DNA from: Chloroflexota bacterium
GTDB taxonomy: Bacteria > Chloroflexota > Anaerolineae > J102
Assembly (NCBI GenBank): GCA_024276255.1
Contig: JAJRXO010000126.1
Location: 1 to 29,452 of the forward strand
Length of the DNA stretch: 29,452 bases
Direction of reading: 5' to 3'
Shown: positions 8,296-29,259 of the stretch, in pieces
Numbering within the stretch: position 1 is the first letter of the stretch
Layout of the letters: the number at the start of each line of letters is the position of its first letter
Made by a program: the position numbers and the translations under genes
The notes under the pieces: generated by a model
Databases searched by the model: none
Told to the model about the DNA's origin: nothing
What the model saw: only the letters and a program-made list of their open reading frames with translations

Positions 8296-9438
8296 TTATC
8301 GCCGCCGGTGACGACGCCGGGTTGCCCTGGGACGAGATGGCTCCTCACCGGCCCCGGTCAGGCGTAGGGGCGGAATCTGCTCTGGTGGCAGCGCTGGCGG
8401 TTCCCACTGACGCACGGCTGCCAACATGGCATCGATACTTTCGGCCGGCATGCCTGGTGAGATGCCCCCTCCCAGAGACAAGATCAGTCCACCCCCTGGG
8501 GCTGCCCGATCCAGACAGTTCTTTGCCCACTCATATACGACTTCTGGCGGCTGTCGTGTCGCGATGTGCAAGGGAGGGATGTTGCCCATGAGGGCAATGC
8601 GGTTGCCGATGACCTTCTTTGTTTCCAGAAGATCCACGTCATACGTAAAATTGAGGACATCAAAACCAGCGCGGGTAAAAGCGGGAAAGAGATGGGCGCA
8701 GGGGGTGTCATTGTGATATACCCGGATCAGTCCTTCGAATTCGCCAAAAATGCGCTGCAGACAGGGCTCGACGAATTCCTCATAATGCTGCAATGACACC
8801 ATGCCGACAATGTCGTCAAGCAACATGATTCCCTCTGGCTCGTGCAGGATATCCAGCTGGGCATGCAGGAACTGGATCAGGGTGGTGGTAATTTTTTCCA
8901 CGATGCGATGAATGAGATCGGGATGTTGTACGATGCCCGTCATCAGGCTGTTGATGCCCATGATCCAACCGGCAGTCACCATGGGGCCACGCGCACATAC
9001 CATTTTGATACCCCCGCCCTCAGCCCGCAATCTTTCTTCGGCATAGCGATACAGCCGATAGACCAGGGGCATGAGCCCATCTTCATACACATTGGGCAGG
9101 GGCGCCTCGGCCCAATGTTCCAATGATGTGGTAACCGGCTCCAGGGCCGGGGGACTGTCGTCGTGCCAGTGGATGCGGACGCCGAATGCGGATGGTTCGA
9201 CCGCCATACCATACTCGACCCAAAAGCCCGGGATCCAAACTACGCCGGGAAATCGTGTAAGCAGGGCGCGCTGAATATCGAACCAGGTCTCGGGAAAAAG
9301 GTAATAATCCTTGGTGTTGATGCCGGCATAACCGGCCAACCAGGGACTGTCGACTATCAGTGCCAAAGGTGGTTTGGCGGGTTCGCCCAGGCGGGCCGCA
9401 AGTTTGAAGTCTTGCCAAAGAGTTGTATTGTTCATCAT
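8296..9438 (-). CDS. URO-D/MtaA-fold family protein (not HemE)
   Basis: GPMVTA, MLLDDIVG, YHNDTP, LMGNIPP, GGGLILSLGGG..PG; lacks the HemE RQAGR motif; Arg-rich C-terminal tail. Confidence 0.82.
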   Translation of the reverse strand: MMNNTTLWQDFKLAARLGEPAKPPLALIVDSPWLAGYAGINTKDYYLFPETWFDIQRALLTRFPGVVWIPGFWVEYGMAVEPSAFGVRIHWHDDSPPALEPVTTSLEHWAEAPLPNVYEDGLMPLVYRLYRYAEERLRAEGGGIKMVCARGPMVTAGWIMGINSLMTGIVQHPDLIHRIVEKITTTLIQFLHAQLDILHEPEGIMLLDDIVGMVSLQHYEEFVEPCLQRIFGEFEGLIRVYHNDTPCAHLFPAFTRAGFDVLNFTYDVDLLETKKVIGNRIALMGNIPPLHIATRQPPEVVYEWAKNCLDRAAPGGGLILSLGGGISPGMPAESIDAMLAAVRQWEPPALPPEQIPPLRLTGAGEEPSRPRATRRRHRRR

Positions 9439-10295: not shown

Positions 10296-11369
10296 TCAGG
10301 AAATGTGCATGGCCATGTTCTGAGCCTGGATGGCCAATTCGATGGCTTTGAAGGCGTGTGCTTGCGGCTGGGCCTGCTCGCTGCGCTGCAGGCAGTCGAG
10401 AATGAGCTGTCCGAAAAAGGGAAAGCCCACTTGGCCATGCAGGGCGAAATGCTGCATGCCCTGGTGATTGACGAGATACAGGTGGTCGCCGCTCTCCTCG
10501 CGAGCGATGTCGATGTACTTGCGCAGCTCAATGGTGCCATCGCTGCCCATGATAAACGTGCGTCCATCGCCCCACACGGGCAGCCCGTCAGGCGTGAACC
10601 AGTCCACCCGGAAATACATGGTGGCTCCGTTGTCGGCCAGTAGCGTGGCATCGCCGAAATCCTGAAAGCCAGGGTATTGCGGATGTCGATAATTGGCTAT
10701 CTTGCTGTGCAGTACCCTGGCATCCTGCGCGCCGGCATAAAACAGAAACTGTTCGATCTGATGACTGCCGATGTCGCAGAGGATGCCGCCGTAGCGGCCG
10801 GGGTCGAAGAACCAGGCCGGACGCGATGGCAGATTGGCGCGATGCGGCGCCAGATTGACTACCTGCAGCACCCGGCCGATGGCCCCCTGCTGGATGAGAT
10901 CGCCGGCAAATACGGCGGATTCGACATGCAGGCGCTCAGAATAATAGACGGCGTATTTGCGGGCCGTCGCCGCCACCCTGGCGCGTGCCAGTGCCAGCTG
11001 TTCCAGCGTGGTGAGGGGAGGTTTGTCGGCAAAGAAATCCTTGCCTGCATCCATGACCCTCAGGCCAATGCTGCAACGGTCGGCAGGCACAGCAGCACAT
11101 GCCACCAGGTGGACGGTGGGATCATCAAGCACCTGGGCTTCGCTGTTGGCGGCCCGGGCCTGGGGAAAACGTCGGCGGAATGCGGCAACTTTGATCGGAT
11201 CGGGGTCGTAGACCCAGGCCAGCTCGGCGCCGGCTTCGATGAGCCCGTTGCACATGCCGTAGATGTGACCGTGATCCAGACCCACGGCGGCAAAGCGGAA
11301 TTCACCGGCATCTACCACCGGATTGGGTTTGCCCTGCGGGGCATACATCATGCCATCTGCTCGCTGCAT
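10296..11369 (-). CDS. Gfo/Idh/MocA-family oxidoreductase
   Basis: AVGLDHGHI, ADKP, GGILCDIGSH. Start at ATG 11369 with AGGA. Confidence 0.9.
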   Translation of the reverse strand: MQRADGMMYAPQGKPNPVVDAGEFRFAAVGLDHGHIYGMCNGLIEAGAELAWVYDPDPIKVAAFRRRFPQARAANSEAQVLDDPTVHLVACAAVPADRCSIGLRVMDAGKDFFADKPPLTTLEQLALARARVAATARKYAVYYSERLHVESAVFAGDLIQQGAIGRVLQVVNLAPHRANLPSRPAWFFDPGRYGGILCDIGSHQIEQFLFYAGAQDARVLHSKIANYRHPQYPGFQDFGDATLLADNGATMYFRVDWFTPDGLPVWGDGRTFIMGSDGTIELRKYIDIAREESGDHLYLVNHQGMQHFALHGQVGFPFFGQLILDCLQRSEQAQPQAHAFKAIELAIQAQNMAMHIS

Positions 11370-11423
11370 GGGATTGATCCTGCAATTCATGTTGAATTAG
11401 CTGTAGGCAAGAACGCCGTTGCG

Positions 11424-12578
11424 CTACTGATAATCAGAGCCAAATGAAATCTGATCGTCGGCGAAGCCTTCGACGGTGTGGGTTTTTTCGTGAAAGTGTG
11501 GCGCGTGGGTCAGGACGCCTTCCCGGGAGTAGAAGGGGGAGGTGGAAGGTAGAGGGAGGCGCACGATCTCGCCGGTAAACCCCGATTGGTAGATGGCTGT
11601 TACCAGTTCGATCGTGTTGCGGCCCTGCACACCGTCGATCAGTAGGCCGGCTTTGCCCTCCACGGCGGCCAGCATGTTCTCGATTTGCCCAGCATGCCCC
11701 TCCCTGGGGACTTCTGGCAGTCCCTGGAAAAAGCGATCGATCTCGGCTTCTGTCTCGGGGTCGGGATCAGGAAAGCCGTTGGGGCGCTGTTTGTGGGCAT
11801 GGACCTGCCAGGGCACGGAAACGCCTGCCCGTTCGCCCTGAAAAGTGAAGCGCTGCAGCTCACCGTGGTGCACCAGCGAAGCCGTGATCTGGCCCAGGCG
11901 ACCGTCCTCATAGCGCAGCACAGCCGTGGAAAAGTCCTCCACCTGCGAGTTTTCGTGGTTCAGGTTGGTGACCACGGCGTGCACGGTCTGCGGCATGCCC
12001 ATCATCCACTGGAAGAGGTCGATGTGATGAACGGCATGGTTGAGCGTACAGCCGCCGCCTTCCTTCTCCCAGGTGCCTCGCCACCATAGGTCGTAGTAGT
12101 GGCTGCCCCGCCACCAGAAGGAGTCGACCATGCCATACAGGATGCGGCCGACAATGCCGCTATCGAGAACCTGCTTGAGTTTCTTCAGAGGGCTACGAAA
12201 GCGATTTTGCGCCACCACGGAGAGAAGTTTGTTGCTGTGTCGCTGCGCTTCCAGGATGCGGTCGCACTGGGCCAGGGTGGGAGCCATGGGTTTTTCCAGC
12301 AACACGTGTACACCAGCCTGTAGCAGATCGATTGCAGCCTGGGCGTGGGCGTATGGCGGCAGACAGATCGCAGCCAGGTCTATGCGTTGGTCGGCGAGCA
12401 AGTCCTGCCACGAACTATAGATGGCAGCGTCAAGCTGGAACTGCTCGGCTTTTTGCGCCGCGCGCTCAGGCGTGCGGTTGACCAGCGCCGTGATACGGCA
12501 ACGGTCAGGGAATTGCATGAATCCCCGGATGTGAGCCGGGGCGACAGCCCCGGTACCAATGATAGCGACTCGAAGCAT
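11424..12578 (-). CDS. Gfo/Idh/MocA-family oxidoreductase
   Basis: IIGTGAVA, EKP, GGGCTLNHAVHHID. Confidence 0.92.
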   Translation of the reverse strand: MLRVAIIGTGAVAPAHIRGFMQFPDRCRITALVNRTPERAAQKAEQFQLDAAIYSSWQDLLADQRIDLAAICLPPYAHAQAAIDLLQAGVHVLLEKPMAPTLAQCDRILEAQRHSNKLLSVVAQNRFRSPLKKLKQVLDSGIVGRILYGMVDSFWWRGSHYYDLWWRGTWEKEGGGCTLNHAVHHIDLFQWMMGMPQTVHAVVTNLNHENSQVEDFSTAVLRYEDGRLGQITASLVHHGELQRFTFQGERAGVSVPWQVHAHKQRPNGFPDPDPETEAEIDRFFQGLPEVPREGHAGQIENMLAAVEGKAGLLIDGVQGRNTIELVTAIYQSGFTGEIVRLPLPSTSPFYSREGVLTHAPHFHEKTHTVEGFADDQISFGSDYQ

Positions 12579-12656: not shown

Positions 12657-13877
12657 CTATTTGCCAGATATTTTCTTGCGGATTTGCCTTCTTGCCCGGG
12701 TTCCCGACGCACCAGCTGCCAGTGACCATGCCACGGTGATGATCATCGCCACAAGCAACCCTACCAGGGGGGCAACGGGCTGGCCCCACAGCGTCAGCAG
12801 CACAGCCACGAGCGAGCCGGGAGCCCACGTCCACGCAGGGATGCCATATGGCGCTTTACCGTGCCGGCGACGGGACGACTCCACGGCCAGGGGCACGATC
12901 AGGGGCGGCAGCATGGCGGCTAACAGAGCCAGCCAGCTTCCCAGCCATAGGTCAAAACGAAGGAGTGCTAGCATGTAGGCGATGGTGGTAATCAACACCA
13001 TGCCGCTGCGTTCGGGGATATTGAGCGCGGCGCGCAGGCCAGGCGCGCCCGAGTAAAGTGTGGTGAACGTGGGGGCCAGAATGGAGAGAAAAAGCAACAA
13101 ATTGCCAATGCCCAAGGCCCTGTGAGAGGCCAGTAGTGCCACAAGGTCGGCCTCACCCGTGCCCCGATAGATGCTGGCGCCGGCCAGCATCAGGAGCAGC
13201 ACAGGCAGCACCAGCAGATTGATCAGCAGGAACAGATCCTGGCGGCGACGCAGGCCACAGGTGAAGTCGGGCGCCCGCACACTGAAGACAGAGACATAGC
13301 CCACCAGCACAGCCACATCGCTGATAAGAAAGAGGGGATTGCCGAGGTCCAGGCTGATGGGCGTGGTGCGCGCGGCCAGGCGACTTACCAGCAAACCCGC
13401 CAGTAGCAGCACCGAGAGGGTTGCCAGTGCGGCCAACCTGTTCCAGCTACGGATGCCGCGCAATGAGAGAATGAGCACGGGCAGGGCAATACCCAGCGCC
13501 GCCAGCCATAGCGGGAGTCCCAGCAGGCGTCCCAGGGCGGCACCTCCCAGGGCCATGTTGAAACCCGACCAGCCGATCATACCCAGGGCGATCACCCCGC
13601 CTACGATGCGCTGCATGCCCGGCCCAAAGTAAATGGGCGTGACCTGCGTGAGGGTACGACCGTCGCCGTGCGGCGGCTGCAGGCCCAGCAGGCCCTGGAA
13701 CCAGAGGATGGCAAACATCAGGGCATAGGCAAAGAGGATCGCCAGCAGCGGCACGGCCCCGCCGTGACGTCGCGTGATCAGGGCCCCGATCAGCAGGGAA
13801 CCTGGTGAGGTCCCGATGCCCAGCCATGCGCCGGAGACCTGCCACCAGCGTCGTTCTGCCACCGTGTATGCGCTCAT
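12657..13877 (-). CDS. Secondary transporter, probably NCS1/CodB (purine-cytosine permease)-like
   Basis: About 11-12 hydrophobic segments; N-terminal WLGIGTSPGSLLIG and MIGWSGFN resemble CodB-like permeases. Confidence 0.6.
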   Translation of the reverse strand: MSAYTVAERRWWQVSGAWLGIGTSPGSLLIGALITRRHGGAVPLLAILFAYALMFAILWFQGLLGLQPPHGDGRTLTQVTPIYFGPGMQRIVGGVIALGMIGWSGFNMALGGAALGRLLGLPLWLAALGIALPVLILSLRGIRSWNRLAALATLSVLLLAGLLVSRLAARTTPISLDLGNPLFLISDVAVLVGYVSVFSVRAPDFTCGLRRRQDLFLLINLLVLPVLLLMLAGASIYRGTGEADLVALLASHRALGIGNLLLFLSILAPTFTTLYSGAPGLRAALNIPERSGMVLITTIAYMLALLRFDLWLGSWLALLAAMLPPLIVPLAVESSRRRHGKAPYGIPAWTWAPGSLVAVLLTLWGQPVAPLVGLLVAMIITVAWSLAAGASGTRARRQIRKKISGK

Positions 13878-13886
13878 GAATGGGCG

Positions 13887-14228
13887 TCAGTCAAACCATT
13901 CGTCGGCAGGGTTGAAGGCCGGAATGGCGGTGATGGCCACGCGTAGCTGGCCCACGGCCCGGTGCCGGCAGCCAGGTTTGATAAGGATGGCCGAAAAAGG
14001 TCGCACCGGAACGCGCTCACCGTCCAGTTCCATGATGCCTTCGCCCGCTAAGATCAAATAGAGCTCAGTGGTTTCCTTGTGATAATGTACCCGTGCATCT
14101 TCCTGCACGTTTAGCAGATGCAGGCTGGCCCGCTGTTCCGCATCCTGCGTAAAGGCGCGGCGGGTGATGCCGCAGGGGCAGGTGATAGGGTCGAGGGCAT
14201 CCAGTTGTGCAAGGAGATAGCGAGCCAT
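13887..14228 (-). CDS. Monocupin with N-terminal CPCG motif
   Basis: HYH...E.Y.ILAGEG and PG..H cupin metal motifs; 113 aa. Confidence 0.88.
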   Translation of the reverse strand: MARYLLAQLDALDPITCPCGITRRAFTQDAEQRASLHLLNVQEDARVHYHKETTELYLILAGEGIMELDGERVPVRPFSAILIKPGCRHRAVGQLRVAITAIPAFNPADEWFD

Positions 14229-14231
14229 CTT

Positions 14232-15008
14232 TCACTCCAGATGCAGCACGCCGCTGTCCTGGAAGATACCGCGGATATGACCTGTATACTCGTTGAACTC
14301 CTCTGGCAGGCGGTCCAGCCTGCGAGGGCGGGGTAAATCGATATCGATGATCTCGGCCACGCGGCCGGGGCGCGGCGTCATCACCACCACCCGGTCGGCC
14401 AGCAGCACGGCTTCGGGGATGCTGTGAGTGATCAGCAGGGCAGTCTTGCGTTTCTCCATCCACAGATGCTGAATGTCCATGGATATTTGTTCGCGTGTGA
14501 GTGCGTCGAGAGAGCCGAATGGCTCATCCATGAGCAGCAGGGGGGGATCATGCACCAGTCCGCGACAAATGGAGACGCGCTGCTTCATACCACCCGAAAG
14601 CTCGTAGGGTTTTTTATGCTCAAAGCCATCCAGCCCCACATCACGAAGCAGTTCGAGGGCCTTGGGTTCATATTCCTTGCGGTCCAGATTACGGATATCG
14701 ATCTGCAGTAGGACGTTGTCCAGCACATCTCGCCAGTCCAGCAATACTGAATCCTGGAAGATGATGCCCAGGTTAATCTGCGGTCGGTTGACCAACTTGC
14801 CGGCGATCGTGATTTCGCCCAGGGTGTAGGGGATGAGCCCGGCAATCATCTTGAGGATGGTGGTTTTGCCACAGCCACTCGGGCCGACGATCGCCACAAA
14901 CTCTGATTCGTAAATGTCAAAGTTTACTTTTTCGACGGCCAAGACAATGCCGTTCCTGGTGAGGTATTGTTTTTCGACGTTCCGTAAACGAATGAATGGT
15001 TCGGCCAT
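14232..15008 (-). CDS. ABC ATP-binding protein, NitT/TauT family
   Basis: Walker A GPSGCGKT, signature LSGGMKQR, Walker B LLMDEPF. Start at ATG 15008. Confidence 0.95.
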   Translation of the reverse strand: MAEPFIRLRNVEKQYLTRNGIVLAVEKVNFDIYESEFVAIVGPSGCGKTTILKMIAGLIPYTLGEITIAGKLVNRPQINLGIIFQDSVLLDWRDVLDNVLLQIDIRNLDRKEYEPKALELLRDVGLDGFEHKKPYELSGGMKQRVSICRGLVHDPPLLLMDEPFGSLDALTREQISMDIQHLWMEKRKTALLITHSIPEAVLLADRVVVMTPRPGRVAEIIDIDLPRPRRLDRLPEEFNEYTGHIRGIFQDSGVLHLE

Positions 15009-15060
15009 GGATGGGGTTCTCGCTGGGGGATGAGAGGGGTTACGGAATTGAGAGCAGGCG

Positions 15061-15090
15061 TGGGGGCGCCGCAATGAGGTGGCGCCCCCA
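15061..15090 (-). other. Strong hairpin between binding-protein and ATPase genes
   Basis: Perfect 10-bp stem TGGGGGCGCC / GGCGCCCCCA, extendable with AGGC/GCCT. Confidence 0.7.
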
Positions 15091-15101
15091 GCTGCCTGGC
15101 C

Positions 15102-16136
15102 TTACTTCTCGGGCATGTAGGGCGGTTCGGAGATGAAATCGTTGGTGAAAAAGACGTTCACATCCTTTTCGGGCTTGAAGCTGGCGTATTTCTGCAGCAG
15201 TTCCTGGGTGGCCAGCCAGTCTTCTGTGGCCGACCAGCCGATGGGCTTACCCTCAGAATTGGGCGTGTGCAGCAGGGTCAGAGATCCCTTGATCTCTGCC
15301 AGCGACAGCGGCACATCGAAGCCGCGGTCAGCCGCGTGCTTGGCGAAGATCTCGGCTGCCTCTTCGGGATGCTCGGCAGTGTAGGCCCAGGCCCGCTGTG
15401 AAGCGCGTACGAACTTCTTGACAAGCTCAGGGTTCTCTTTGGCCCAGAAGTTGTTGACGATGATGGCGCTGGAAAGCGTATTCACGTTACATACTTCGGT
15501 CAGCTGCTTCCACTCGATATCGATGCCGGTGTTCTTCTCGATGCGCAGTGGCTGATCGACGAAGTATCCGAGGAATGTATCTGACGTGCCTTCCAACATC
15601 GCCACTTCTTTGGCCTGCGGATTTGAAACCTGCACCAGCTCGACATCGTCCAGGGTCATGCCGTTTTTGCCCAGACATGCTTCGAAGATGGACATGGAGG
15701 CATCGCCGGCGGTGACAGCCACCTTGGCGCCCCTCAGTTCATCGATGTTGGTGGGGCGTGGGCGATCGGCACGATAGATGAAGGACATGGGACTGGATTG
15801 GAATATGACGGCCACAGCCTTTACAGGTACACCTGCCGAGACACCTCGCATCATGGTGGCCGAGTCGGCATAGCCAATCACGTTGTTGCCATTGCCAACC
15901 AGCTTGACCGTCGTGCCGGAGCCGCTCCCTTCGAGAATGGTGACATCAAGGCCTTCGTCAGCGTAAAAGCCTTTATCTACTCCCAAAAAGAAGGGCGCGT
16001 GTTCGCCGTAAAGCGTCCAGTTTAGGCGGAATTCAATGGGGACGGGGCCGGATTCAGGCGGGGCGGCCGGCTTGGCGCAGGCTGCCAGGGCCGTGGCCAG
16101 CATAATCAACAAAACCAGAACGATGGTCTTCTTCAT
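15102..16136 (-). CDS. NMT1/THI5-like (SsuA/TauA class) ABC substrate-binding lipoprotein
   Basis: LAAC lipobox; LNW...HAPFFLGVDKGFYADEGLDV..G.GS pattern. Confidence 0.88.
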   Translation of the reverse strand: MKKTIVLVLLIMLATALAACAKPAAPPESGPVPIEFRLNWTLYGEHAPFFLGVDKGFYADEGLDVTILEGSGSGTTVKLVGNGNNVIGYADSATMMRGVSAGVPVKAVAVIFQSSPMSFIYRADRPRPTNIDELRGAKVAVTAGDASMSIFEACLGKNGMTLDDVELVQVSNPQAKEVAMLEGTSDTFLGYFVDQPLRIEKNTGIDIEWKQLTEVCNVNTLSSAIIVNNFWAKENPELVKKFVRASQRAWAYTAEHPEEAAEIFAKHAADRGFDVPLSLAEIKGSLTLLHTPNSEGKPIGWSATEDWLATQELLQKYASFKPEKDVNVFFTNDFISEPPYMPEK

Positions 16137-16220
16137 GGGGTCCTCCTGTAAACGATACGTGAGTGAACGGCGGAATAGGGTGATTGGATATTAAACGGCC
16201 TCGGAAAAACATTTGAATAT

Positions 16221-16241
16221 GGCATCACCTCCTTGCAATGA
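16221..16241 (-). promoter_or_regulatory. Orphan extended Shine-Dalgarno-like element upstream of the NMT1-like binding protein
   Basis: Minus strand TCATTGCAAGGAGGTGATGCC, about 89 nt upstream of ATG 16136, which has its own AGGAGG. Confidence 0.55.
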
Positions 16242-16252
16242 TGGGGCATGTG

Positions 16253-17071
16253 TTACAGTGTGCCGTGTTCTTGGCCTGAACGCACCGTAATGTGCCAGGG
16301 AATCAGAATGTTTTCCAGAAATTGTACGATGTAGAAAAGCAACAGGCCCTGAATTGTGAGGGCAACGATCACCCCAAACATGAGTGCTGTTTGCAGGTTG
16401 GAATTGGTAACCAGCAACATATAGCCCAGGCCCTTGTCTGCACCGACGAATTCGCCGACGACCGCACCCACAACGGCCAATGTGGCGCCCACTTTGAGAC
16501 CACTGAACATGTAGGGCAGGCTGGTGGGCAGCCTGAAGCGTGTGAAAATCTGGAAATTGCTGGCCCCCATGGAGCGCGCCAGGTCGATCATCTCCGGTGA
16601 GATGGAACGCAGGCCTACCGCGGTGTCAATGATGATGGGAAAAAAGGAGATCAGGAAGGCGACCAGTACTTTGGGCAGCGTTCCCACGCCAAACCACACC
16701 AAAAACAATGGGGCCAGGGCGATCTTTGGTACGGTTTGGAAGAAGAGGATGATTGGGGTGATGAAATTGTCGAATGAGCGCGAGGCCGTGGTGAGAATGG
16801 CCAGGGGCACGGCAACGGCGATGGCCATGAAATAGCCCAACAACATCTCGTAGGCTGTTACCCCGCTGTGCTTCAGGAGAGCATCGAAGTGTTCCACGAT
16901 CATGACGAGCACTTCGGTTGGAGGGGGAAGCAGGTATGATGCGATGTTGAGCAAGCGCACAGCCACTTCCCAGATAACCAAGAAGAGGATGATGCCAATG
17001 GCAGGCAGGATTTTAGCCCGCCAGGCGGCTCGGCGTTCGAGTTGACCCAATTCGGCGATTGATTGTGTCAT
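16253..17071 (-). CDS. ABC permease, NitT/TauT family
   Basis: LLPPP motif, PKIALAPLF, EAA-like loop (DLARSMGAS), GAVVGEF. Confidence 0.93.
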   Translation of the reverse strand: MTQSIAELGQLERRAAWRAKILPAIGIILFLVIWEVAVRLLNIASYLLPPPTEVLVMIVEHFDALLKHSGVTAYEMLLGYFMAIAVAVPLAILTTASRSFDNFITPIILFFQTVPKIALAPLFLVWFGVGTLPKVLVAFLISFFPIIIDTAVGLRSISPEMIDLARSMGASNFQIFTRFRLPTSLPYMFSGLKVGATLAVVGAVVGEFVGADKGLGYMLLVTNSNLQTALMFGVIVALTIQGLLLFYIVQFLENILIPWHITVRSGQEHGTL

Positions 17072-18531
17072 AGCGACCTTCCTTGATGAGGGGATAAGCG
17101 TTTATGGCTTGTGATTGGAAAGATGTGTGGAAGTGAGCTAAAATCTAAATCAGTTGCCAGACCAAAAGGCGCTTGCAGGAGACTGCCAAGAGAGCATTGG
17201 CCTGCAATGATGCGAAGGCGGGGAGGAGTTTGACCATGCTTGACATAAAGATCAGAATGGTGTCGCATTACAGCCTCTTGCCAGGAAGGGGGGAACTGAT
17301 CGAGGCCACCGAAGTAGTGGTGCCCGTTGCGTTCCACATGGTGCAGGCCCAGAGTGGCCATTACGGTAAGATCCTGGTGTAGTGCGATGGGGCCAACATT
17401 GCTCAGGTCTTCGCCGCTGAGGATAATGGTTTGCGTTGGTTGCTGCTGCCGGAGATAGGACAGCAGGCAGGCATTGGCCACGCCCTTGAAAACGCCCTTG
17501 CAGTTTTTATGGCTGGTGCCAGCATAGCCATATGCCAGCGCCCGGCGCATACTGCCCAACTCGGCATCCGATTCGTCGATGATCATCGGTGGCCGGCCTG
17601 TCCAGTTCAGTAGCTGTTGTTGGGTGTCGGAGGTCAGGGCGATGACACGATGGAAAGGCTGTTCCACGAAGAGCAGTCGTTGTCCGAAAGCCGGCCACGC
17701 CGCGGATGTGCGGAAACGCTCCCAGAATCGTCGGAATGCTGCAACTTCGCGGAATTGTTCGTTGCCGTCGAGCGTAATGGTAAATGCATCCGTACGCGTT
17801 TCGATGATGGCTGCAATGCGTACCAGCCTGGGAATATCCTCCTCGGTTCCAGCGATCTTGATTTTGAAATAACGCAAACCGTATGTCTGGATACAGGCTT
17901 CAAGACTCTGTGGTAAACCATCATTGACCCGCTCATGCGGTGAAATCTCGGCCTCGGTGAGGGGATCAGCCATACCCACTGTGTGACGGATGAAAATCGT
18001 ATGGGCAGGCGACGCAGGCAGGAGTTGGGCTGGCTGGAGACCGGTCAATTCAGCATGCACCTGGCCCAGATCGATGCCCAGACGGTTGTCACGTATGGCT
18101 TTGGCAAAGGATACGTCCTCAGCCTTGCAGAAAGCATCGATAAGCGCCCGTTCAACAAGGCTGACTCCGAATTGCCACAGCAATGCCGGATACGGTGTGT
18201 CCTGCGCCCAGGCCTGCTGGGCAGCGTAAACGTGCTGCCACAGCCGGAAGACAGTGGGTGCAGAGCCAGTCTGCAGGGCATGTTGTGTTGCCATACTGAT
18301 CACGTCCAGCATGGCAGCCAGCTCCTCGTTGTAGGTCTGGGCCGCATCCTTGCTGAACCACTTGGGTACCAGGTTGTCGGCTGCCAGCCCCTCACTGAGC
18401 TTGCCATCCACATCCACCCGTAATCGCATTATTAGATGCGGCGTCTCGGTGAGGGTGGCAATACCGTAGTGGAAGGGTATGCGCGTATGCAAGTCAATCT
18501 GGTAAAAATCGGCAGCCAGGACGCGAATCAT
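17068..18531 (-). CDS. Large (487 aa) enolase-superfamily protein with MLE-type ligands, function unknown
   Basis: FKIK, LDGNEQ, VEQP, IDES, SHKNCKG. Start MIRV at 18531 overlaps the upstream stop (ATGA); its own stop overlaps the permease start. Confidence 0.8.
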   Translation of the reverse strand: MIRVLAADFYQIDLHTRIPFHYGIATLTETPHLIMRLRVDVDGKLSEGLAADNLVPKWFSKDAAQTYNEELAAMLDVISMATQHALQTGSAPTVFRLWQHVYAAQQAWAQDTPYPALLWQFGVSLVERALIDAFCKAEDVSFAKAIRDNRLGIDLGQVHAELTGLQPAQLLPASPAHTIFIRHTVGMADPLTEAEISPHERVNDGLPQSLEACIQTYGLRYFKIKIAGTEEDIPRLVRIAAIIETRTDAFTITLDGNEQFREVAAFRRFWERFRTSAAWPAFGQRLLFVEQPFHRVIALTSDTQQQLLNWTGRPPMIIDESDAELGSMRRALAYGYAGTSHKNCKGVFKGVANACLLSYLRQQQPTQTIILSGEDLSNVGPIALHQDLTVMATLGLHHVERNGHHYFGGLDQFPPSWQEAVMRHHSDLYVKHGQTPPRLRIIAGQCSLGSLLQAPFGLATDLDFSSLPHIFPITSHKRLSPHQGRSL

Positions 18532-19673
18532 GCGCCTACCTCCGCGACCACACGCAGGGTCTCTTCTGCCCTTGGGTACAGCGTCAGTCCCAGGCCGGGG
18601 CCGGTGGGCACTTGGATGCGGTCGGTATGCGGGAAAAAGCCATCGCCAGCCAGGCTTTCGGCCAGATACTGTGGGCCATTGAGTGCGCAGGGTTTGTCGA
18701 TGCCCGCCCAGGCAAAGAGATGCGCTGACGCAGCCAGCGAGAGATCGGGGTCGCACAGTCCTGAGCCCAGTAGGAAGATGCCGCGCTCCCTGGCCAGTTT
18801 CGCTATTTGCATCCCCTGCCAGATGCCCGCAGTGCGCCCTACCTTGAGTGTAAGCCCATCCATCATCCCCAGGTCCATGAAGGATTCCGCCTCCAACGGC
18901 GAGATAACGCCCTCGTCCATGACGATGGGCAAAGCACCCTGTTGGTGCAAGGTTTGATAGCCGGCGACGGACATTGGCGGCAAAGGAGATTCCAGTACGT
19001 CAACGCCGATATCGCTCAGCCGGGGCAGCGTCTGCAGGGCCGTACTCAGGTCGTAGCCGGTGTTGGCGTCGGCCCAACAGAAGCCATCCGGTGCAAAATC
19101 GCGAACCAGCCGCGCCAGCGCCAGATCGTAATCCGGTGCCTGCGGGGGACCGATCTTGAAGTTGAAATGCCGATAACCCCGTTCGTGGCCCGTCTGTAAT
19201 TGCGCTTCGGCCTGAGCAAGTGTGGGCGCATTGATCGTCCAGCTCAGCGTGAGTTCGGTCGGGCCATCCTCGGTGCCCAGCAGGTTTTGCATCGACACAC
19301 CGCGCTGCCGGCCTGCCAGATCGTAGCAGGCCAGATCGACAGCTGCCTGGCAAAGGGGCTGGCCGGTGGTCAGGCCCGGACAGATGGTCCGGTTCATGCG
19401 CCCGTGGATATCGGCAATATCTGCAGGATTGGCGCCCAAAAGCCGGGGCGCGAGATAGTTGGCGAGGGTGGTGGTCACCGTCTCCACCGTTTCATAGCTC
19501 CAATTGGGGACGGGTACGGCCTGCCCCCAGCCTTGATTGCCGGCGGCATCCGTTAATCGCAGCAAGACCGAAGGCCGGACGACGCGCCCATTCGGGCCGG
19601 GTTCAAAGAATTTGAACTCGCCCTGGAAGGGATAATCGAAGCGTCCGACTTCGATCCTGACTATCGAATGCAC
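18528..19673 (-). CDS. MLE-subgroup enolase-superfamily enzyme (epimerase/cycloisomerase-like)
   Basis: GWGQA, AAVDLACYD, FNFKIG, DAN, ESP, DEG, LKVGRTAG. GTG start at 19673 with AGGAG. Confidence 0.85.
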   Translation of the reverse strand: MHSIVRIEVGRFDYPFQGEFKFFEPGPNGRVVRPSVLLRLTDAAGNQGWGQAVPVPNWSYETVETVTTTLANYLAPRLLGANPADIADIHGRMNRTICPGLTTGQPLCQAAVDLACYDLAGRQRGVSMQNLLGTEDGPTELTLSWTINAPTLAQAEAQLQTGHERGYRHFNFKIGPPQAPDYDLALARLVRDFAPDGFCWADANTGYDLSTALQTLPRLSDIGVDVLESPLPPMSVAGYQTLHQQGALPIVMDEGVISPLEAESFMDLGMMDGLTLKVGRTAGIWQGMQIAKLARERGIFLLGSGLCDPDLSLAASAHLFAWAGIDKPCALNGPQYLAESLAGDGFFPHTDRIQVPTGPGLGLTLYPRAEETLRVVAEVGA

Positions 19674-19749
19674 GCGGATCTCCTGAAAAGGGGGTGGGAT
19701 GACTGATATGGCTCTCAACAAGGCGGGTTGTTCACTGCAACGAAGGTGT

Positions 19750-20856
19750 CTAATTCGTCCTTCGTCGATGCTGGCGCTGTTCGCGACGCGGCCTGCGCTT
19801 TTGATCTTGCAAGGCTTTAATAATGGTAGGGATATTCCGGTGAAGTTTTGGGTTGGCGCCCCAGTCGTGGGCAGCTCGTACCATGGCGGCTACATTTTCC
19901 AGCGGGGTGTGCTGGGGAAGTGAGCAACCCGGCGCCAGGATGTCGACGCCGTTGCCCAGGCATTCCAACGATGCCTGGTAGACCGTTTCCGGGTCGCCAT
20001 TGAGCAACACTTCCACGGTGGGTACGTAGCCGGCCAGCGCTACTTTGCCTTTGGCATACTTGCGTGCTTCACTCATGTCAACCCCTTCGTCGAAGCTGTA
20101 GCAGGTGGCGCCGCTCTCGGCAATGTAGGGCAGGTGATTGCTGGACTTGCCGCAAATATGCAAGATAGTGGGGCCTTTGATGCTGGCACACAGGCGCTGG
20201 TGATAGGGTAGGATGAAGTCCCGGTAGGTTTGATGTGAGATAAGATCGCCCGAGCAGGTGGCCTCTCCCAGGACGATGGCGTCGGCACCGGCATCGATCT
20301 GGGCATTTGCATAGCGGGTGGCCAGATCAGTGAGAGGCTCCAGAATCTGATGGACATAGTCGGGATGCGTGATGATCCAGGGGAAGAGATTGGGAAAACC
20401 AAAGAGTTTGGCGGCTAGGGCAAAGGGCCCCACGATGGAGGAGATGACGGCCACCTCGTTATCGTAACGCTTACGCAGACGGCCGATGGCATCCAGCACG
20501 ACCGGCACCCGCCCCCGATCCAGGAAGTCGGTGGGGATCAAAAGTTCGTCGGGATGATTCCAGATGGGATAGATGTCGGTGGGCAGGGTATCCAGGGTGC
20601 CGTAATCGATTTCCAAGCCCAGAACCTCAACCTCGACGGTCATGCCAAAAGGCAGCTTGATGGCTTCGATCTGGCAGTGTTCCCAGATGGACGCGGCTAG
20701 GCCGGCCAGTTGACGTGCATCTTTGTGGGCCTCTGGATAGAAAATGCCTGCCTTTTCCATCATTCTCACAGTAATACCCGTGACCACCGCCGCTACAGGC
20801 GGACGATCGACGGGTTGCAGGTGCAGTGCGTTCAGAAAGCGGGTTTTGGCGTTCAT
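19750..20856 (-). CDS. MtaA/CmuA-family methyltransferase-like protein (URO-D fold)
   Basis: RPPV N-terminus, VGPFALA, LHICG and LAPGC Zn-ligand motifs. Confidence 0.85.
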   Translation of the reverse strand: MNAKTRFLNALHLQPVDRPPVAAVVTGITVRMMEKAGIFYPEAHKDARQLAGLAASIWEHCQIEAIKLPFGMTVEVEVLGLEIDYGTLDTLPTDIYPIWNHPDELLIPTDFLDRGRVPVVLDAIGRLRKRYDNEVAVISSIVGPFALAAKLFGFPNLFPWIITHPDYVHQILEPLTDLATRYANAQIDAGADAIVLGEATCSGDLISHQTYRDFILPYHQRLCASIKGPTILHICGKSSNHLPYIAESGATCYSFDEGVDMSEARKYAKGKVALAGYVPTVEVLLNGDPETVYQASLECLGNGVDILAPGCSLPQHTPLENVAAMVRAAHDWGANPKLHRNIPTIIKALQDQKRRPRREQRQHRRRTN

Positions 20857-20860
20857 CGGG

Positions 20861-21562
20861 CTAGGTCACTTCCATGTTCCACACGACCGGCACCTGTTCG
20901 TCGCTGAAGCCTGAGCGGTGCAGATGATCGATGTAGTCTTTGAGGGCGGAGCGGTTGTGCTCGCGCACACTCATTTCCAGGCGGACGACATCCTTGTCTT
21001 TCATCGCCTGGAACATTTTCCAGTGATCGGCTTGGGCTTTGGCAATGCGCTTCCCAAACACATCATCCAGATAGGTGCGGCGCAGGCGGTCCCAATGCAA
21101 CAGCACTCGTTTCATGATGTCGGTCACCATCATCACGCCAGAGCGCTCGCAGATCAGCTGATGCAGACGCATATTGTGTTCCGACCAGCGCTCCACATCC
21201 GAGATCAGATCATCCATTTTTGTGAGTAGTTGCTCGATTTCCCGCAGGTCTTCCCTCTGCAGGTTCAGGCAGGCCATGCGACCGCTAATCACCTCCACTG
21301 CTTCCAGCATGACAAAAATCTCGGATATCATACCCGGTTGTAGGTCGGTCACCGTGGCCCCGGCGTAGGGGCGAATCACCACAAATCCCTCGGCTTCCAG
21401 TTGCTGCAGGGCTTCACGTATGGGAATGTGACTGATTTTCAAGCGGCGGGCCAGATCGTCGATCACCAGCGGCGAGTTGGGCGCGAAGTTTCCCTCGATG
21501 ATTTGCGAGAGAATCCATCGATAGACGGCGGTGCGTTTGCTGCGTACGGTGATCCTAGTCAT
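20861..21562 (-). CDS. GntR-family regulator (FCD domain)
   Basis: wHTH (IIEGNFAP...ISHIPIREAL..LEAEG) plus FCD. Start at ATG 21562. Confidence 0.92.
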   Translation of the reverse strand: MTRITVRSKRTAVYRWILSQIIEGNFAPNSPLVIDDLARRLKISHIPIREALQQLEAEGFVVIRPYAGATVTDLQPGMISEIFVMLEAVEVISGRMACLNLQREDLREIEQLLTKMDDLISDVERWSEHNMRLHQLICERSGVMMVTDIMKRVLLHWDRLRRTYLDDVFGKRIAKAQADHWKMFQAMKDKDVVRLEMSVREHNRSALKDYIDHLHRSGFSDEQVPVVWNMEVT

Positions 21563-21570
21563 GGGCAATT

Positions 21571-21599
21571 TTGCCAAATGCGGCAACATATATTACAAT
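21571..21599 (+). promoter_or_regulatory. sigma70-type promoter for the rightward arm
   Basis: TTGCCA-N17-TACAAT. Confidence 0.65.
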
Positions 21600-21604
21600 A
21601 TGCC

Positions 21605-21631
21605 TATCAGCCTGTATGATAATATATGATA
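21605..21631. promoter_or_regulatory. Candidate GntR-family operator
   Basis: TATCA-N7-TGATA palindrome (21605-21621) plus TATGATA direct repeats (21615-21621, 21625-21631). Confidence 0.5.
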
Positions 21632-21647
21632 CGATCGCACTTGTCAA
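21619..21647 (-). promoter_or_regulatory. sigma70-type promoter for the leftward arm
   Basis: Minus strand TTGACA-N17-TATTAT. Confidence 0.75.
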
Positions 21648-22409: not shown

Positions 22410-23558
22410 ATGAAACAGGAACCCAGACCGGCCGAATTGATACCGAAGCTGCAGCATGCCTTTGAATTTGCCCAGCGGCAGGTCAAGCAATTGATCACCG
22501 CCTACCCCGACTTCTTCCCCATATACACGCAGGGGGGGAAGTGGAAGCACACGGGCGAGGCATGGACAAACTGGTGCGAAGGTTTTTTGGGCGGCATGAT
22601 GTGGCTATTTCATCGTCGCTGTGGCAGTTCTTTCTGGCGCCAGCAGGCCGAGCACTATTCTCGCCTTCTGGAACCCCGCAAGTATGACCGCAACGTCCAT
22701 GATCTGGGGTTTGTTTTCTGGTCCTCCTGGAAGCGGTGGTATGATCTCACAGGTGATCCGCCGTTGAACGAGGTAATTATCACCGCCGGGCAGACCATGA
22801 GCCTGCGTTTCAAAGAAAAAGGTCAGTATCTACGATCCTTTGTGGCCGACAACTCGCTCTTTATCGACATCATGATGAATGTGGGAATCGTCTTTTATGC
22901 GGCTCAGCAAACCGACGATGCCGACCTGCTGCGCAAGGCCCATGCCCACTGCCTGACCACTCGGCGCACGCTGGTGCGAGGTGACGGTTCCACCGCCCAC
23001 GAGGGCCTTTTCGACCTGGCGAGCGGCGAGTTCCTGCGGCAGTCTACCCATCAGGGCTGGCGAGGCGATTCGGCCTGGGCCAGGGGACAGGGTTGGGCGT
23101 TGTATGGCTTTAGTACTGCCTATGAGATGACGGGCGAGCGTAAGTATCTGCAAACGGCCAAGATGTGCGCCGACTATTATATTGAAAGCACCTCCTTTGA
23201 TGATGATGCCCCCTTCGGGCCAGGAGTACCGCCCAACGACTGGCAGGAACCGGGCAGTCTGGCCGAGAGTTCGGCTGCTGCCATTGCTGCCAGCGGCCTG
23301 CTGGATCTGGCCCGTCTGGATCAGGACCCCGTGCACGCTGCCCGCTATCGTCAGGCTGCCCTCATCATTCTCGACACCCTCACCGGCCCCGACTATCTGG
23401 CTGATCACACGCCAGGTTGGGAGGGCATTCTCCTGCATGGCAGCTATCATCAGCGTAAGGGCCTGGGCGTGGATGAAAGTGTGATGTGGGGTGAGCATTT
23501 CTTTGTGGAGGCCATCGATAAGGCCTTGACCCTGCTGGAAGGAGAAAGCCAGGCATGA
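22410..23558 (+). CDS. ugl: GH88 unsaturated glucuronyl hydrolase, cytoplasmic
   Basis: WCEGF, HDLGF, FIDIMMN (two catalytic Asp positions), HQG...SAWARGQGWALYGF, SSAAAIAASG; no signal peptide. Confidence 0.88.
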   Translation: MKQEPRPAELIPKLQHAFEFAQRQVKQLITAYPDFFPIYTQGGKWKHTGEAWTNWCEGFLGGMMWLFHRRCGSSFWRQQAEHYSRLLEPRKYDRNVHDLGFVFWSSWKRWYDLTGDPPLNEVIITAGQTMSLRFKEKGQYLRSFVADNSLFIDIMMNVGIVFYAAQQTDDADLLRKAHAHCLTTRRTLVRGDGSTAHEGLFDLASGEFLRQSTHQGWRGDSAWARGQGWALYGFSTAYEMTGERKYLQTAKMCADYYIESTSFDDDAPFGPGVPPNDWQEPGSLAESSAAAIAASGLLDLARLDQDPVHAARYRQAALIILDTLTGPDYLADHTPGWEGILLHGSYHQRKGLGVDESVMWGEHFFVEAIDKALTLLEGESQA

Positions 23559-27661: not shown

Positions 27662-29259
27662 TGCAAATCATCTCATCAGCACAAGCTGCAAGCCTGCTCC
27701 AGGATGGCGATACCCTCCTGATCGGCGGCTCGGGCGGCGGTCATGCCGTGCCTGAGTCCCTCATTGTTGCTCTGGCTGAACGTTTTCAGGCCGAAGGGCG
27801 GCCCCGCAATCTCACCTTGCTGCACCCGGTGGGTTTGGGCGACATGGATAGCCGGGGTGTGGACAGATTGGCGGGGAAAGGCCTGCTCAAGCGCATTGTT
27901 ACCGGTGCCCTGGTCAATACACCCGCCATTCAGCGCATGGCCCGCGCAGACCTCATCGAGGCCTACACCCTGCCGCAGGGCGCGCTCTCCCAGCTCATGC
28001 GCGAGATGGCGGCCGGACGGCCCGGCCTGCTCTCGCATGTGGGCTTGCACACCTTTGTCGATCCCCGGTATGGCGGCGGCCGCCAGAGCCCTTCAGCCAG
28101 AGAAGATCTGGTGGAATTGGTGGAGCTGGCCGGCGGGGAGTGGCTGTTCTACAAGCCCATTTCCGTGGATGTGGCCTTTTTACGGGGCACCACGGCTGAC
28201 GAGGATGGCAACGTGACCATGGAGAAAGAGGCGGTCTTTGGCGAGATGCTATCCATGGCGCAGGCAACCCGGCGCTACGGCGGCGTGGTTATCGCGCAGG
28301 TCGAACGCCTTGCCCAACGCCACACCTTGCCCCCCAAGCAGGTAAAGATCCCTGGCATGCTGGTTGATCTGGTAGTCGTCGATCCACAGCAACGACAGAC
28401 CTACGTTACTGACTACAGCCCTGCCTACGCCGGCGAGTTGCGTGTTCCCCTGCAAGATATCCCGTCCCTGCCTTTCGATGCCCGTAAGGTGATTGCCCGT
28501 CGGGCCGCCATGGAGCTCTTTCCCGGCGCTGTGTGCAATCTGGGAGCCGGTGTCTCGACCGGTATTGCCAACATCGCCGCCGAGGAGGGCTTTCTCGACC
28601 AGATCATCCTCACCAACGAGCAGGGCCTGATCGGTGGGGCTCCGGCTTCGGGAGTAGATGCGGGCGCTGCCGTCAATTACGATGCCATTGTGGACCAGCC
28701 CTATCAGTTTGATTTTTACGATGGCGGCGGCCTGGACCTGGCTTTCCTCTCCTTTGCCCAGGTCGATGCCGAGGGCAGCGTCAATATCAGCCGTTTTGGC
28801 GACCGCATCATCGGCATCGGTGGCTTCCAGAACATCGCTCAAAACGCCAAGACCGTGATCTTCAGCGGCACCTTCACCGCCGGGGGACTGGATATCACCT
28901 GGGAGCAGGGCCGCACCGTGATTCGCCGTGAGGGCCGCCATGCCAAATTTGTGGGGCAGCTCGAGCAGGTATCCTACAACGGCGCCTATGCTGCTTCGCT
29001 GGGACAGAATGTGCTCTTCGTCAGCGAGCGGGCCGTGTTTCGTCGCCAACGCCAGGGCATGGTTCTGGTGGAGATCGCGCCCGGTGTGGATCTACAGCGG
29101 GATGTGCTCGCTCACATGGCTTTTCGTCCCCTGATTTCGCCTCAGTTGCGGTTGATGGATGAACGCTTATTCCGGCCCGAGCTGATGAACTACGCCCCCA
29201 CGCTACTGGCCAAACCCCGGATCAACCTGCCTGCCCGGTTGCGAAACCTGATAACGTAA
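27661..29259 (+). CDS. Family I fused acyl-CoA:acetate/3-ketoacid CoA-transferase (YdiF/Pct-like)
   Basis: YTLPQG, GLHTFVDPR, NLGAG, catalytic ExGxxG (EQGLIG), YDGGGLD, GGFQNI. Start ATG 27661 overlaps the OYE stop (TAATG). Confidence 0.92.
   Translation: MQIISSAQAASLLQDGDTLLIGGSGGGHAVPESLIVALAERFQAEGRPRNLTLLHPVGLGDMDSRGVDRLAGKGLLKRIVTGALVNTPAIQRMARADLIEAYTLPQGALSQLMREMAAGRPGLLSHVGLHTFVDPRYGGGRQSPSAREDLVELVELAGGEWLFYKPISVDVAFLRGTTADEDGNVTMEKEAVFGEMLSMAQATRRYGGVVIAQVERLAQRHTLPPKQVKIPGMLVDLVVVDPQQRQTYVTDYSPAYAGELRVPLQDIPSLPFDARKVIARRAAMELFPGAVCNLGAGVSTGIANIAAEEGFLDQIILTNEQGLIGGAPASGVDAGAAVNYDAIVDQPYQFDFYDGGGLDLAFLSFAQVDAEGSVNISRFGDRIIGIGGFQNIAQNAKTVIFSGTFTAGGLDITWEQGRTVIRREGRHAKFVGQLEQVSYNGAYAASLGQNVLFVSERAVFRRQRQGMVLVEIAPGVDLQRDVLAHMAFRPLISPQLRLMDERLFRPELMNYAPTLLAKPRINLPARLRNLIT

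Follow-up and report, generated by a model that had tools for sequence, protein, structure and literature searches.

The MtaA-like gene and its product

The stretch of DNA analysed here, called the window throughout, comprises 29,452 nucleotides of contig JAJRXO010000126.1 from a Chloroflexota bacterium (assembly GCA_024276255.1). It belongs to a metagenome-assembled genome (MAG) of 3.15 Mb in 704 contigs, which is 85% complete and which named homologues assign to Anaerolineae/Caldilineales. Next to a GntR/FCD regulator gene the window encodes a 368-residue protein related to MtaA of Methanosarcina mazei, a member of the soluble coenzyme M (CoM) methyltransferases. The open reading frame (ORF) is covered end to end by Pfam URO-D (E 8e-76). 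It passes the methylcobalamin:CoM methyltransferase model NF004889 with 342.9 bits against a cut-off of 244, as well as the MtaA/CmuA model TIGR01463 with 312 bits against 235.4. Moreover, M. mazei MtaA (4AY7) aligns with it over its full length in phmmer (E 3e-59). The equivalog cut-offs for MtaA itself (NF040654; 310.6 versus 400 bits) and for MtbA (NF041608; 230.9 versus 600 bits) are both missed. A HemE identity can be ruled out, as TIGR01464 yields only 69.6 bits against a cut-off of 302.95; the HemE-like gene proper of the same genome is located on contig C423 and scores 395.9 bits to PF01208. Kountz & Balskus count as MtaA-like proteins (Mlps) those whose identity to a characterised soluble CoM methyltransferase (SCMT) exceeds 25% (PMC10418091). 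With 34% identity to M. mazei MtaA, the window protein falls within this definition.

An AlphaFold2 (AF2) model built on 30 orthologues reached a predicted local distance difference test (pLDDT) value of 88.4. The best Foldseek matches of this model are the MtaA structures 4AY8/4AY7, with template modelling (TM) scores of 0.87/0.93, a root-mean-square deviation of 1.8 Å and 34% identity, and true UroDs trail behind with TM scores of about 0.76. The protein is hence predicted to adopt the URO-D (β/α)8 fold, with MtaA as its nearest relative. The Arg-rich C-terminal tail (window positions 19750-19850, minus strand) is not conserved, and the alignment consensus is undefined there. In line with this, many orthologues measure only 334-343 residues and stop right after the barrel.

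The LHICG and APGC motifs of the window protein are in register with the identical motifs of M. mazei MtaA in the phmmer alignment. Their codons lie at 20149-20163 (LHICG) and 19921-19932 (PGCS) on the minus strand, and they hold the three predicted zinc ligands His233, Cys235 and Cys311. All three residues are invariant in the 30 orthologues and in all 46 homologues retrieved from the loci, tandem and distant copies included. Among the 11 URO-D matches of the whole genome, this ORF alone carries the His-x-Cys...PGC arrangement. An earlier note on this DNA had described an MtaA-like enzyme with an intact His-x-Cys...Cys site, encoded by the first enzyme gene after the regulator. Its positions for the H-I-C of LHICG and for the cysteine of PGC were recovered from the translation (Table 1), and its family assignment agrees with the curated cut-offs and with the motifs shared with M. 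mazei MtaA. The gene order also holds, because the regulator gene stops 4 nt before the MtaA-like start.

A further cysteine sets the clade apart. Cys201 is part of the clade-specific motif E-A-x-C-S/T-G-D and is almost invariant in the target's clade (at least 45% identity), whereas it is missing from MtaA, which reads DPVASPD, and from distant Anaerolineae homologues, which read DHA-TGD. In the AF2 model it would sit on a flexible active-site loop; residues 199-203 are the sole poorly predicted stretch of the barrel (pLDDT below 50). In addition, the protein has Asp256-Glu257 at the place where MtaA has Glu-Glu.

Conservation of the supercluster

Among 201 sampled genomes of the class, six hold an orthologue of the MtaA-like protein (60-83% identical), and a species-representative collection contributed 32 loci with such orthologues. 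Nearly all of these loci are from Anaerolineae, with one from an Acidobacteriota MAG, and more distant copies are found in Oscillospiraceae, Pirellulales and Heteroscillospira. The earlier note had named neighbourhood conservation as a check, and the neighbourhood is indeed retained: 21 of the 32 loci have the same ATP-binding cassette (ABC) importer and cupin directly beside the MtaA-like gene, and three more loci end at contig breaks but agree with this synteny. Two GFO/IDH/MocA (GFO) oxidoreductase genes usually come next, and a GntR- or LacI-type regulator adjoins the orthologues in most loci. The supercluster further includes a GH88-SDR-OYE set, with or without KDG kinase, KDPG aldolase, CoA-transferase, crotonase, FAH and ADH. 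This set is either divergent from the MtaA-like gene, as in the window (window type), or colinear with it (type B). In at least 16 orthologue loci the retrieved span includes GH88, and the type-B loci form one clade in the tree. One type-B locus (L062, 18099-19096) holds, besides its MtaA-like gene, a MetE-like frame interrupted by stop codons between the GFO genes, which may be a pseudogene or an assembly error.

Four loci (L044, L046, L047 and L056) carry tandem pairs of MtaA-like genes, whose products are about 62-69% identical to the window protein and keep the zinc triad and Cys201 in both copies. Within the class sample, all five genomes with an orthologue of the importer's binding protein also carry an MtaA-like orthologue; these five are a subset of the six mentioned above. 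The importer synteny and this co-occurrence indicate that the MtaA-like gene is a working part of the cluster and not a passenger. A well-conserved MtaA-like clade is thereby tied to a defined importer and to unsaturated-glucuronide/sugar-acid catabolism in widespread anaerobic heterotrophs. Neither this supercluster nor a sugar demethylation that depends on corrinoids was found described in our literature search. The enzyme itself belongs to a known family; its conserved context is what we did not find described.

An enolase-superfamily partner shared with MetE-like enzymes

The importer genes are separated from the MtaA-like gene by two genes, of which the second encodes a divergent protein of 487 residues. 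Its start codon at 18531 is coupled to the stop of the preceding enolase-superfamily gene (MR_MLE1) through an ATGA overlap (18528-18531, minus strand). The longest-ORF start at 18756 is spurious, since it falls within the conserved 3'-terminal part of the preceding gene. The 487-residue protein has no sequence match in Pfam, NCBIfam or the PDB. The ESM Atlas assigns it to MR_MLE_C clusters with a value of 0.98, and its homologue in genome G121 matches MR_MLE_C. The AF2 model (pLDDT 90.9) has its nearest Foldseek neighbours among OSBS, N-acylamino-acid racemase (NAAAR), MLE and MR folds, and the KxK and Asp/Glu/Asp residues are invariant. The protein is clearly a member of the enolase superfamily.

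Metagenomes hold many members of this enolase-like family, with at least 566 matches. We inspected 80 metagenome loci centred on the enolase-like gene, 43 of which had enough flank to be evaluable. A short MetE-like gene lies directly beside it in 7 of the 43 evaluable loci (15 of 80 overall), and an MtaA-like gene lies close to it in 3 of the 43 (6 of 80 overall). The MetE-like partners belong to PF01717, measure about 338 residues and carry VHLCFGN and HPDCGFW motifs; all of them score below every methionine-synthase equivalog cut-off. GFO oxidoreductases recur next to both kinds of pair. Two zinc thiol-alkyltransferases of one clan in the same position are hard to explain by chance, which suggests that the zinc enzyme and the enolase-type enzyme share a metabolite. 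The recurrent pairing of the enolase-like protein with two different zinc alkyltransferases thus offers an independent handle on the chemistry.

Two of the enolase-like/MetE-like pairs (L136, 6938-15136; L131, 9534-11066) adjoin genes for an FGE-sulfatase-like protein, a sulfatase, a BadF/BadG-type ATPase and a MurQ-like SIS protein. These neighbours hint at modified sugars, either sulfated or etherified.

Other genes of the window

The features of the window are collected in Table 1. A Pfam scan covered all of its long ORFs.

Table 1. Features of the window around the MtaA-like gene, with positions, strand and the evidence for each assignment.
Feature	Position	Strand	Basis
Putative MtaA-like (Mlp/SCMT-clade) zinc methyltransferase, 368 aa	19750..20856	-	Pfam URO-D, NF004889, TIGR01463, 4AY7 alignment, AF2/Foldseek
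His233-Ile-Cys235, two of three predicted zinc ligands	20152..20160	-	Aligns with MtaA motif; invariant
Cys311 in PGC, distal predicted zinc ligand	19924..19926	-	Aligns with MtaA motif; invariant
Cys201 in clade-specific motif, on predicted flexible active-site loop	20254..20256	-	Alignment, AF2
GntR/FCD regulator, first gene of the operon	20861..21589	-	Pfam GntR and FCD
Promoter-like site TTGACA-17-TATTAT upstream of regulator gene	21619..21647	-	11/12 consensus positions; pattern match only
MLE-subgroup enolase-superfamily enzyme (MR_MLE1)	18528..19721	-	Pfam MR_MLE_N and MR_MLE_C
Divergent enolase-superfamily protein, 487 aa	17068..18531	-	ESM Atlas, AF2/Foldseek, invariant residues
ABC importer: permease (16253-17071), NMT1/ThiY-type binding protein (15102-16136), ATPase (14232-15074)	14232..17071	-	Pfam, NCBIfam
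Small cupin, 113 aa, conserved 3' of ATPase gene	13887..14228	-	Pfam Cupin_2
Multi-pass membrane protein (second permease)	12657..13877	-	Hydrophobic throughout; present in many loci
Two GFO/IDH/MocA oxidoreductases (11424-12578, 10296-11390)	10296..12578	-	Pfam; conserved in supercluster
Second URO-D-fold paralogue, Y-H-N-D and LGGG instead of LHICG and PGC	8296..9438	-	Pfam URO-D E 7e-40
GH88 unsaturated glucuronyl hydrolase, head of divergent uronate operon	22410..23558	+	1VD5 E 8e-46

MR_MLE1 comes after the MtaA-like gene in window-type loci and is closest, among solved structures, to (chloro)muconate cycloisomerases and N-acylamino-acid racemases. For the binding protein of the importer, the nearest solved relatives are 4NMY, THI5/THI13 and ThiY. 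The pyrimidine-binding ThiY/THI5 proteins match it with E values of 1e-15 to 3e-23, compared with 2e-7 for SsuA. A ThiY/NMT1-type importer is an odd kind for a cluster that otherwise resembles unsaturated-glucuronide catabolism. The name of the Sao organometallic transporter appeared among the importer's best NCBIfam names and was dropped, given that the scores lie far below the cut-offs and the paper shows no link to the cluster.

The cupin is 59-78% identical across loci and matches 4H7L (E 2e-23) and the 'cupin_2 isomerase' 5NJN (E 6e-6). A KdgF-like assignment was discarded since no KdgF structure is among its PDB sequence matches. An assignment as dimethylsulfoniopropionate lyase was discarded as well, with DddQ/DddK reaching only E 0.3-0.4. 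The second permease has no family match in Pfam or NCBIfam.

Further 3' on the minus strand follow a xylose-isomerase-like TIM barrel, the second URO-D paralogue, an acid-sugar dehydratase and a CUT1 sugar importer. The second paralogue misses the MtaA/CmuA cut-offs. Its orthologues, with an F-H-N-D-M motif, are present in seven window-type loci, where they lie between the permease and GFO genes, and in no type-B locus. This paralogue could be an O-type substrate:corrinoid methyltransferase. On the divergent side, which also holds a GntR gene, GH88 is followed up to position 29259 by Pfam matches for an SDR, a KDG-kinase-like PfkB, KDPG aldolase, OYE and CoA-transferase.

Corrinoid machinery elsewhere in the genome

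Corrinoid-dependent methyl transfer would involve a corrinoid protein, a RACE activase (RACo) and further methyltransferase components, here termed methyltransferase 1 (MT1) for the substrate-specific component and methyltransferase 2 (MT2) for its counterpart. Across the whole genome we found 17 B12-binding matches, with small corrinoid proteins on contigs C352, C134, C413 and C683 among them, together with 7 RACo, 8 MttB and 4 pterin-binding methyltransferase matches. A canonical cluster of the quaternary-amine type, with the order MttB, corrinoid protein, pterin-binding MT2 and MttB, is located on contig C352 (548-5118), and a pterin-type MT2 adjoins RACo on contig C41. Contig C27 carries MttB triplets, and contig C134 carries RACo and a corrinoid protein. 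The same searches gave no B12-binding, RACo, MttB or pterin-binding match on the window's own contig. The claim of the earlier note that the window lacks a corrinoid protein, a RACE activator and a methyl-THF methyltransferase is thus borne out by the whole-genome searches, and profiles derived from the genome's own partner proteins also give no match in the window. The partners that one of the note's two readings placed elsewhere are present in the genome. ComA (PF02679) was not found in this 85%-complete genome, in which the bacterial route of CoM biosynthesis was not searched.

Comparison with known methyltransferase systems

Comparing the window protein with M. mazei MtaA, and with MtbA and MtsA alongside it, reveals a common fold and length, 34% identity, LHICG and PGC motifs in register and a passing score in the MtaA/CmuA subfamily model. 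The window gene likewise lies apart from its presumed corrinoid partner genes. However, the window protein is bacterial, stays below the MtaA and MtbA equivalog cut-offs and comes from a genome, 85% complete, in which no ComA was found. It also differs in its extra Cys201, in Asp256-Glu257 and in its position in a sugar-acid/importer operon.

Outside methanogens, MtaA-like enzymes had no assigned role until a preprint proposed methyl-sulfur/methyl-selenide metabolism for bacterial clusters that have their own corrinoid protein (PMC10418091). Our locus resembles these type 1 mlp clusters in that its MtaA-like protein is bacterial, is over 25% identical to an SCMT and has the His-Cys-Cys ligands that predict S/Se-methyl chemistry (PMC10418091). 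Whereas type 1 mlp clusters carry two to three Mlps with a corrinoid protein and RACE, there is one Mlp here, in tandem in four loci. No corrinoid protein, RACo or MttB is encoded in the window or in the 37 orthologue loci, so that the locus does not qualify as a type 1 mlp cluster. Unlike in those clusters, the neighbours in the supercluster are carbohydrate genes and not sulfur/selenium genes. What is added here is a defined supercluster, a strict link to an NMT1-type importer, a clade-specific cysteine, and the alternation of MtaA-like and MetE-like enzymes beside a large uncharacterised enolase-superfamily family. With its importer, binding protein, two enolase-type enzymes and one zinc enzyme, the cluster makes a tractable test set.

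The UroD-fold component of bacterial systems usually acts as the substrate-specific MT1, with an MT2 of the pterin type (PMC13222342). This pattern of roles, seen for the UroD-fold MT1s OdmB, VdmB, MtvB and CdmB, fits the pterin MT2 of the canonical cluster in the window's genome. However, these MT1s are devoid of the Cys ligands or of zinc altogether, and their genes accompany that of their corrinoid protein, in which the MtaA-like protein of the window differs. The second paralogue of the window, with its H-N-D motif, is closer to them than the MtaA-like protein is.

The short 'core' MetE-like methionine synthases (PF01717) share the clan, the His-x-Cys...Cys zinc site and, in other lineages, the equivalent place beside the enolase-like gene. 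They belong to another family, however, and the partners of the enolase-like gene fall under all methionine-synthase equivalog cut-offs.

Possible functions of the MtaA-like enzyme

We tentatively favour a role of the MtaA-like enzyme in a corrinoid-dependent S-methyl transfer step with partners encoded elsewhere, a reading to which we give somewhat less than an even chance. On this view, a conserved catabolic supercluster in Anaerolineae would have taken in a zinc enzyme of the soluble CoM-methyltransferase clade (MtaA/MtbA/MtsA, 'Mlp'). Zinc held by His233, Cys235 and Cys311 would bind the soft atom, sulfur or possibly selenium, of a small molecule; the ThiY/NMT1-type ABC system next to the gene may import this molecule, and the neighbouring enolase-superfamily enzymes may process it. 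A corrinoid protein encoded elsewhere, cycling between cob(I) and methyl-cob(III), would give or take the methyl group, with a RACE activase of the genome maintaining its activity, and the pterin-type MT2 on C352 or C41 could link the methyl flow to tetrahydrofolate. By analogy with MtsA, the likeliest direction would be S-methyl removal, freeing the skeleton for the sugar-acid route.

The case for corrinoid-dependent S-methyl transfer draws on homology, on a zinc site of the S type, on the MetE-like enzymes that pair with the enolase-like protein in other lineages, and on the fact that each genome examined encodes corrinoid proteins and activases. Corrinoid proteins are the partners of those SCMT/Mlp-clade enzymes that have been characterised (PMC10418091). 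We lean towards an MtsA-like thioether demethylation, since the UroD-fold component acts as MT1 in bacteria and the canonical cluster of the genome has a pterin MT2. The idea that MtqA is a UroD-fold tetrahydrofolate methyltransferase was rejected, as the literature indicates that bacterial MT2s, including MtqA, belong to the pterin type. Of the interpretation offered by the earlier note, the MtaA-like enzyme with an intact zinc triad and partners elsewhere stands, whereas the His-Cys-Cys type argues against a simple O-methyl sugar as its substrate.

A number of observations weigh against corrinoid dependence or against methyl chemistry at sulfur. Profiles were made from the genome's own corrinoid proteins, RACo and MttB, and recovered further genomic copies as a positive control. 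They gave no match in the window or in 37 orthologue loci, in six loci of Anaerolineae homologues with 33-37% identity, or in the 80 metagenome loci centred on the enolase-like gene. The earlier note had held that a standard corrinoid cluster conserved beside orthologues would remove the novelty; such a cluster was looked for in the 37 orthologue loci and not found. Overall, roughly 1.4 Mb of flanks contained no gene for a corrinoid protein, RACE or MttB at less than about 10 kb from a homologue; the sole nearby case is genome G121, where the contig with the homologue also carries RACo and a corrinoid protein at a distance of 10-13 kb. Longer fused forms of the MtaA-like protein, for instance with a corrinoid domain as in CmuA, were not detected in a search that was weak. 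An Rfam scan of the window returned neither a cobalamin riboswitch nor any other family. The remaining cluster resembles plain unsaturated-uronate/sugar-acid catabolism, with no obvious sulfur or methyl chemistry. In addition, Cys201 has no counterpart in MtaA and could mean a different chemistry.

RACo is present in all 16 homologue-bearing genomes examined, from Chloroflexota, Acidobacteriota, Bacillota and Planctomycetota, and in 1 of 14 control genomes. As 158 of the 201 class genomes encode RACo regardless, its co-occurrence within Anaerolineae is weak evidence, and the 16/16 figure lends only modest support to corrinoid dependence. In Methanosarcina, the MT2 genes mtaA and mtbA are unlinked to their corrinoid operons. 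In Eubacterium, one pair of corrinoid protein and MT2 serves several unlinked MT1s (scheme quoted in PMC9303578). Given these two precedents, missing neighbours are unremarkable.

Alternatively, the enzyme could work without a corrinoid, which we consider rather unlikely. The zinc site, perhaps aided by Cys201, would make a thiol reactive enough to take up an alkyl or methyl group directly, or the metal would serve as a Lewis acid on a sugar acid; the alkyl donor might be an onium methyl group, an epoxide or enone, or a vinylogous ester generated by the GFO and enolase enzymes. This would fit the partners never being nearby (about 1.4 Mb of flanks, four phyla) and the clade-specific cysteine on the predicted flexible active-site loop. 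It would also fit an importer that always adjoins the gene, even in distant relatives, where CUT1 permeases, an Nramp-like permease or a Liv-type ABC system take this place, and an enolase-like partner that pairs alternatively with a MetE-like enzyme, with GFO genes beside both. Precedents from the same clan are MetE and epoxyalkane:CoM transferase, both in the UroD superfamily (PMC10418091). However, the window protein is 34% identical to MtaA and near-superimposable on it in the model, the characterised SCMT/Mlp-clade members use corrinoids, and RACo was found in 16 of 16 genomes. The unlinked mtaA and mtbA of Methanosarcina, too, make missing neighbours not unusual for the clade.

Anaerobic O-demethylation of a methylated sugar or uronic acid, with either the MtaA-like enzyme or the H-N-D paralogue as demethylase, is to our minds unlikely. 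In its second version the H-N-D paralogue (8296-9438) would demethylate the sugar, and the MtaA-like enzyme would move the methyl group from the corrinoid to a thiol or sulfide. The carbohydrate context, with GH88, GFO and acid-sugar dehydratase genes, is strong, and no anaerobic sugar demethylase was found described in the literature searched. In the window and in seven loci, an O-type URO-D paralogue (His-x-Asp) is accompanied by an S-type one (His-x-Cys), like an MT1 and MT2 pair under the ligand rule of PMC10418091. In the UroD superfamily, however, His-Cys-Cys is the reported coordination of S/Se-methyltransferases, and O-demethylases swap the cysteines for carboxylates or lose them (PMC10418091), which counts against a simple O-methyl sugar substrate. 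Moreover, type-B clusters lack the second URO-D paralogue, and the GH88 substrate has no O4, so that 4-O-methyl-glucuronic acid, the commonest methylated uronic acid, would not fit directly.

A broader proposal cuts across these readings. The MtaA-like, enolase-like and GFO enzymes might together form an undescribed, O2-independent route of methyl or alkyl removal from a modified sugar acid or thio-sugar in polysaccharide breakdown. The zinc-thiolate enzyme would accept the group via a shared corrinoid protein or directly from an oxidised or enolised carbon, and the MetE-like enzyme would do the same job in other lineages. We regard this as speculative and rather improbable. The sole carbohydrate demethylase that turned up in the literature searched is an oxygen-dependent P450, and O2-free methyl removal from, or addition to, a carbohydrate-derived compound would, if true, fill a gap.

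By far the least probable reading is that the gene lies in the operon by chance and encodes a housekeeping MT2 (methylcorrinoid:CoM-like thiol) for the MttB systems of the genome. The best NCBIfam names are those of methylcobalamin:CoM methyltransferases, and the genome holds eight MttB matches. However, the scores lie under the MtaA and MtbA equivalog cut-offs, ComA was not found in the 85%-complete genome, and the canonical MttB cluster has its own pterin-type MT2. Furthermore, the synteny of the MtaA-like gene is kept across families and in one other phylum, and it co-occurs strictly with the importer.

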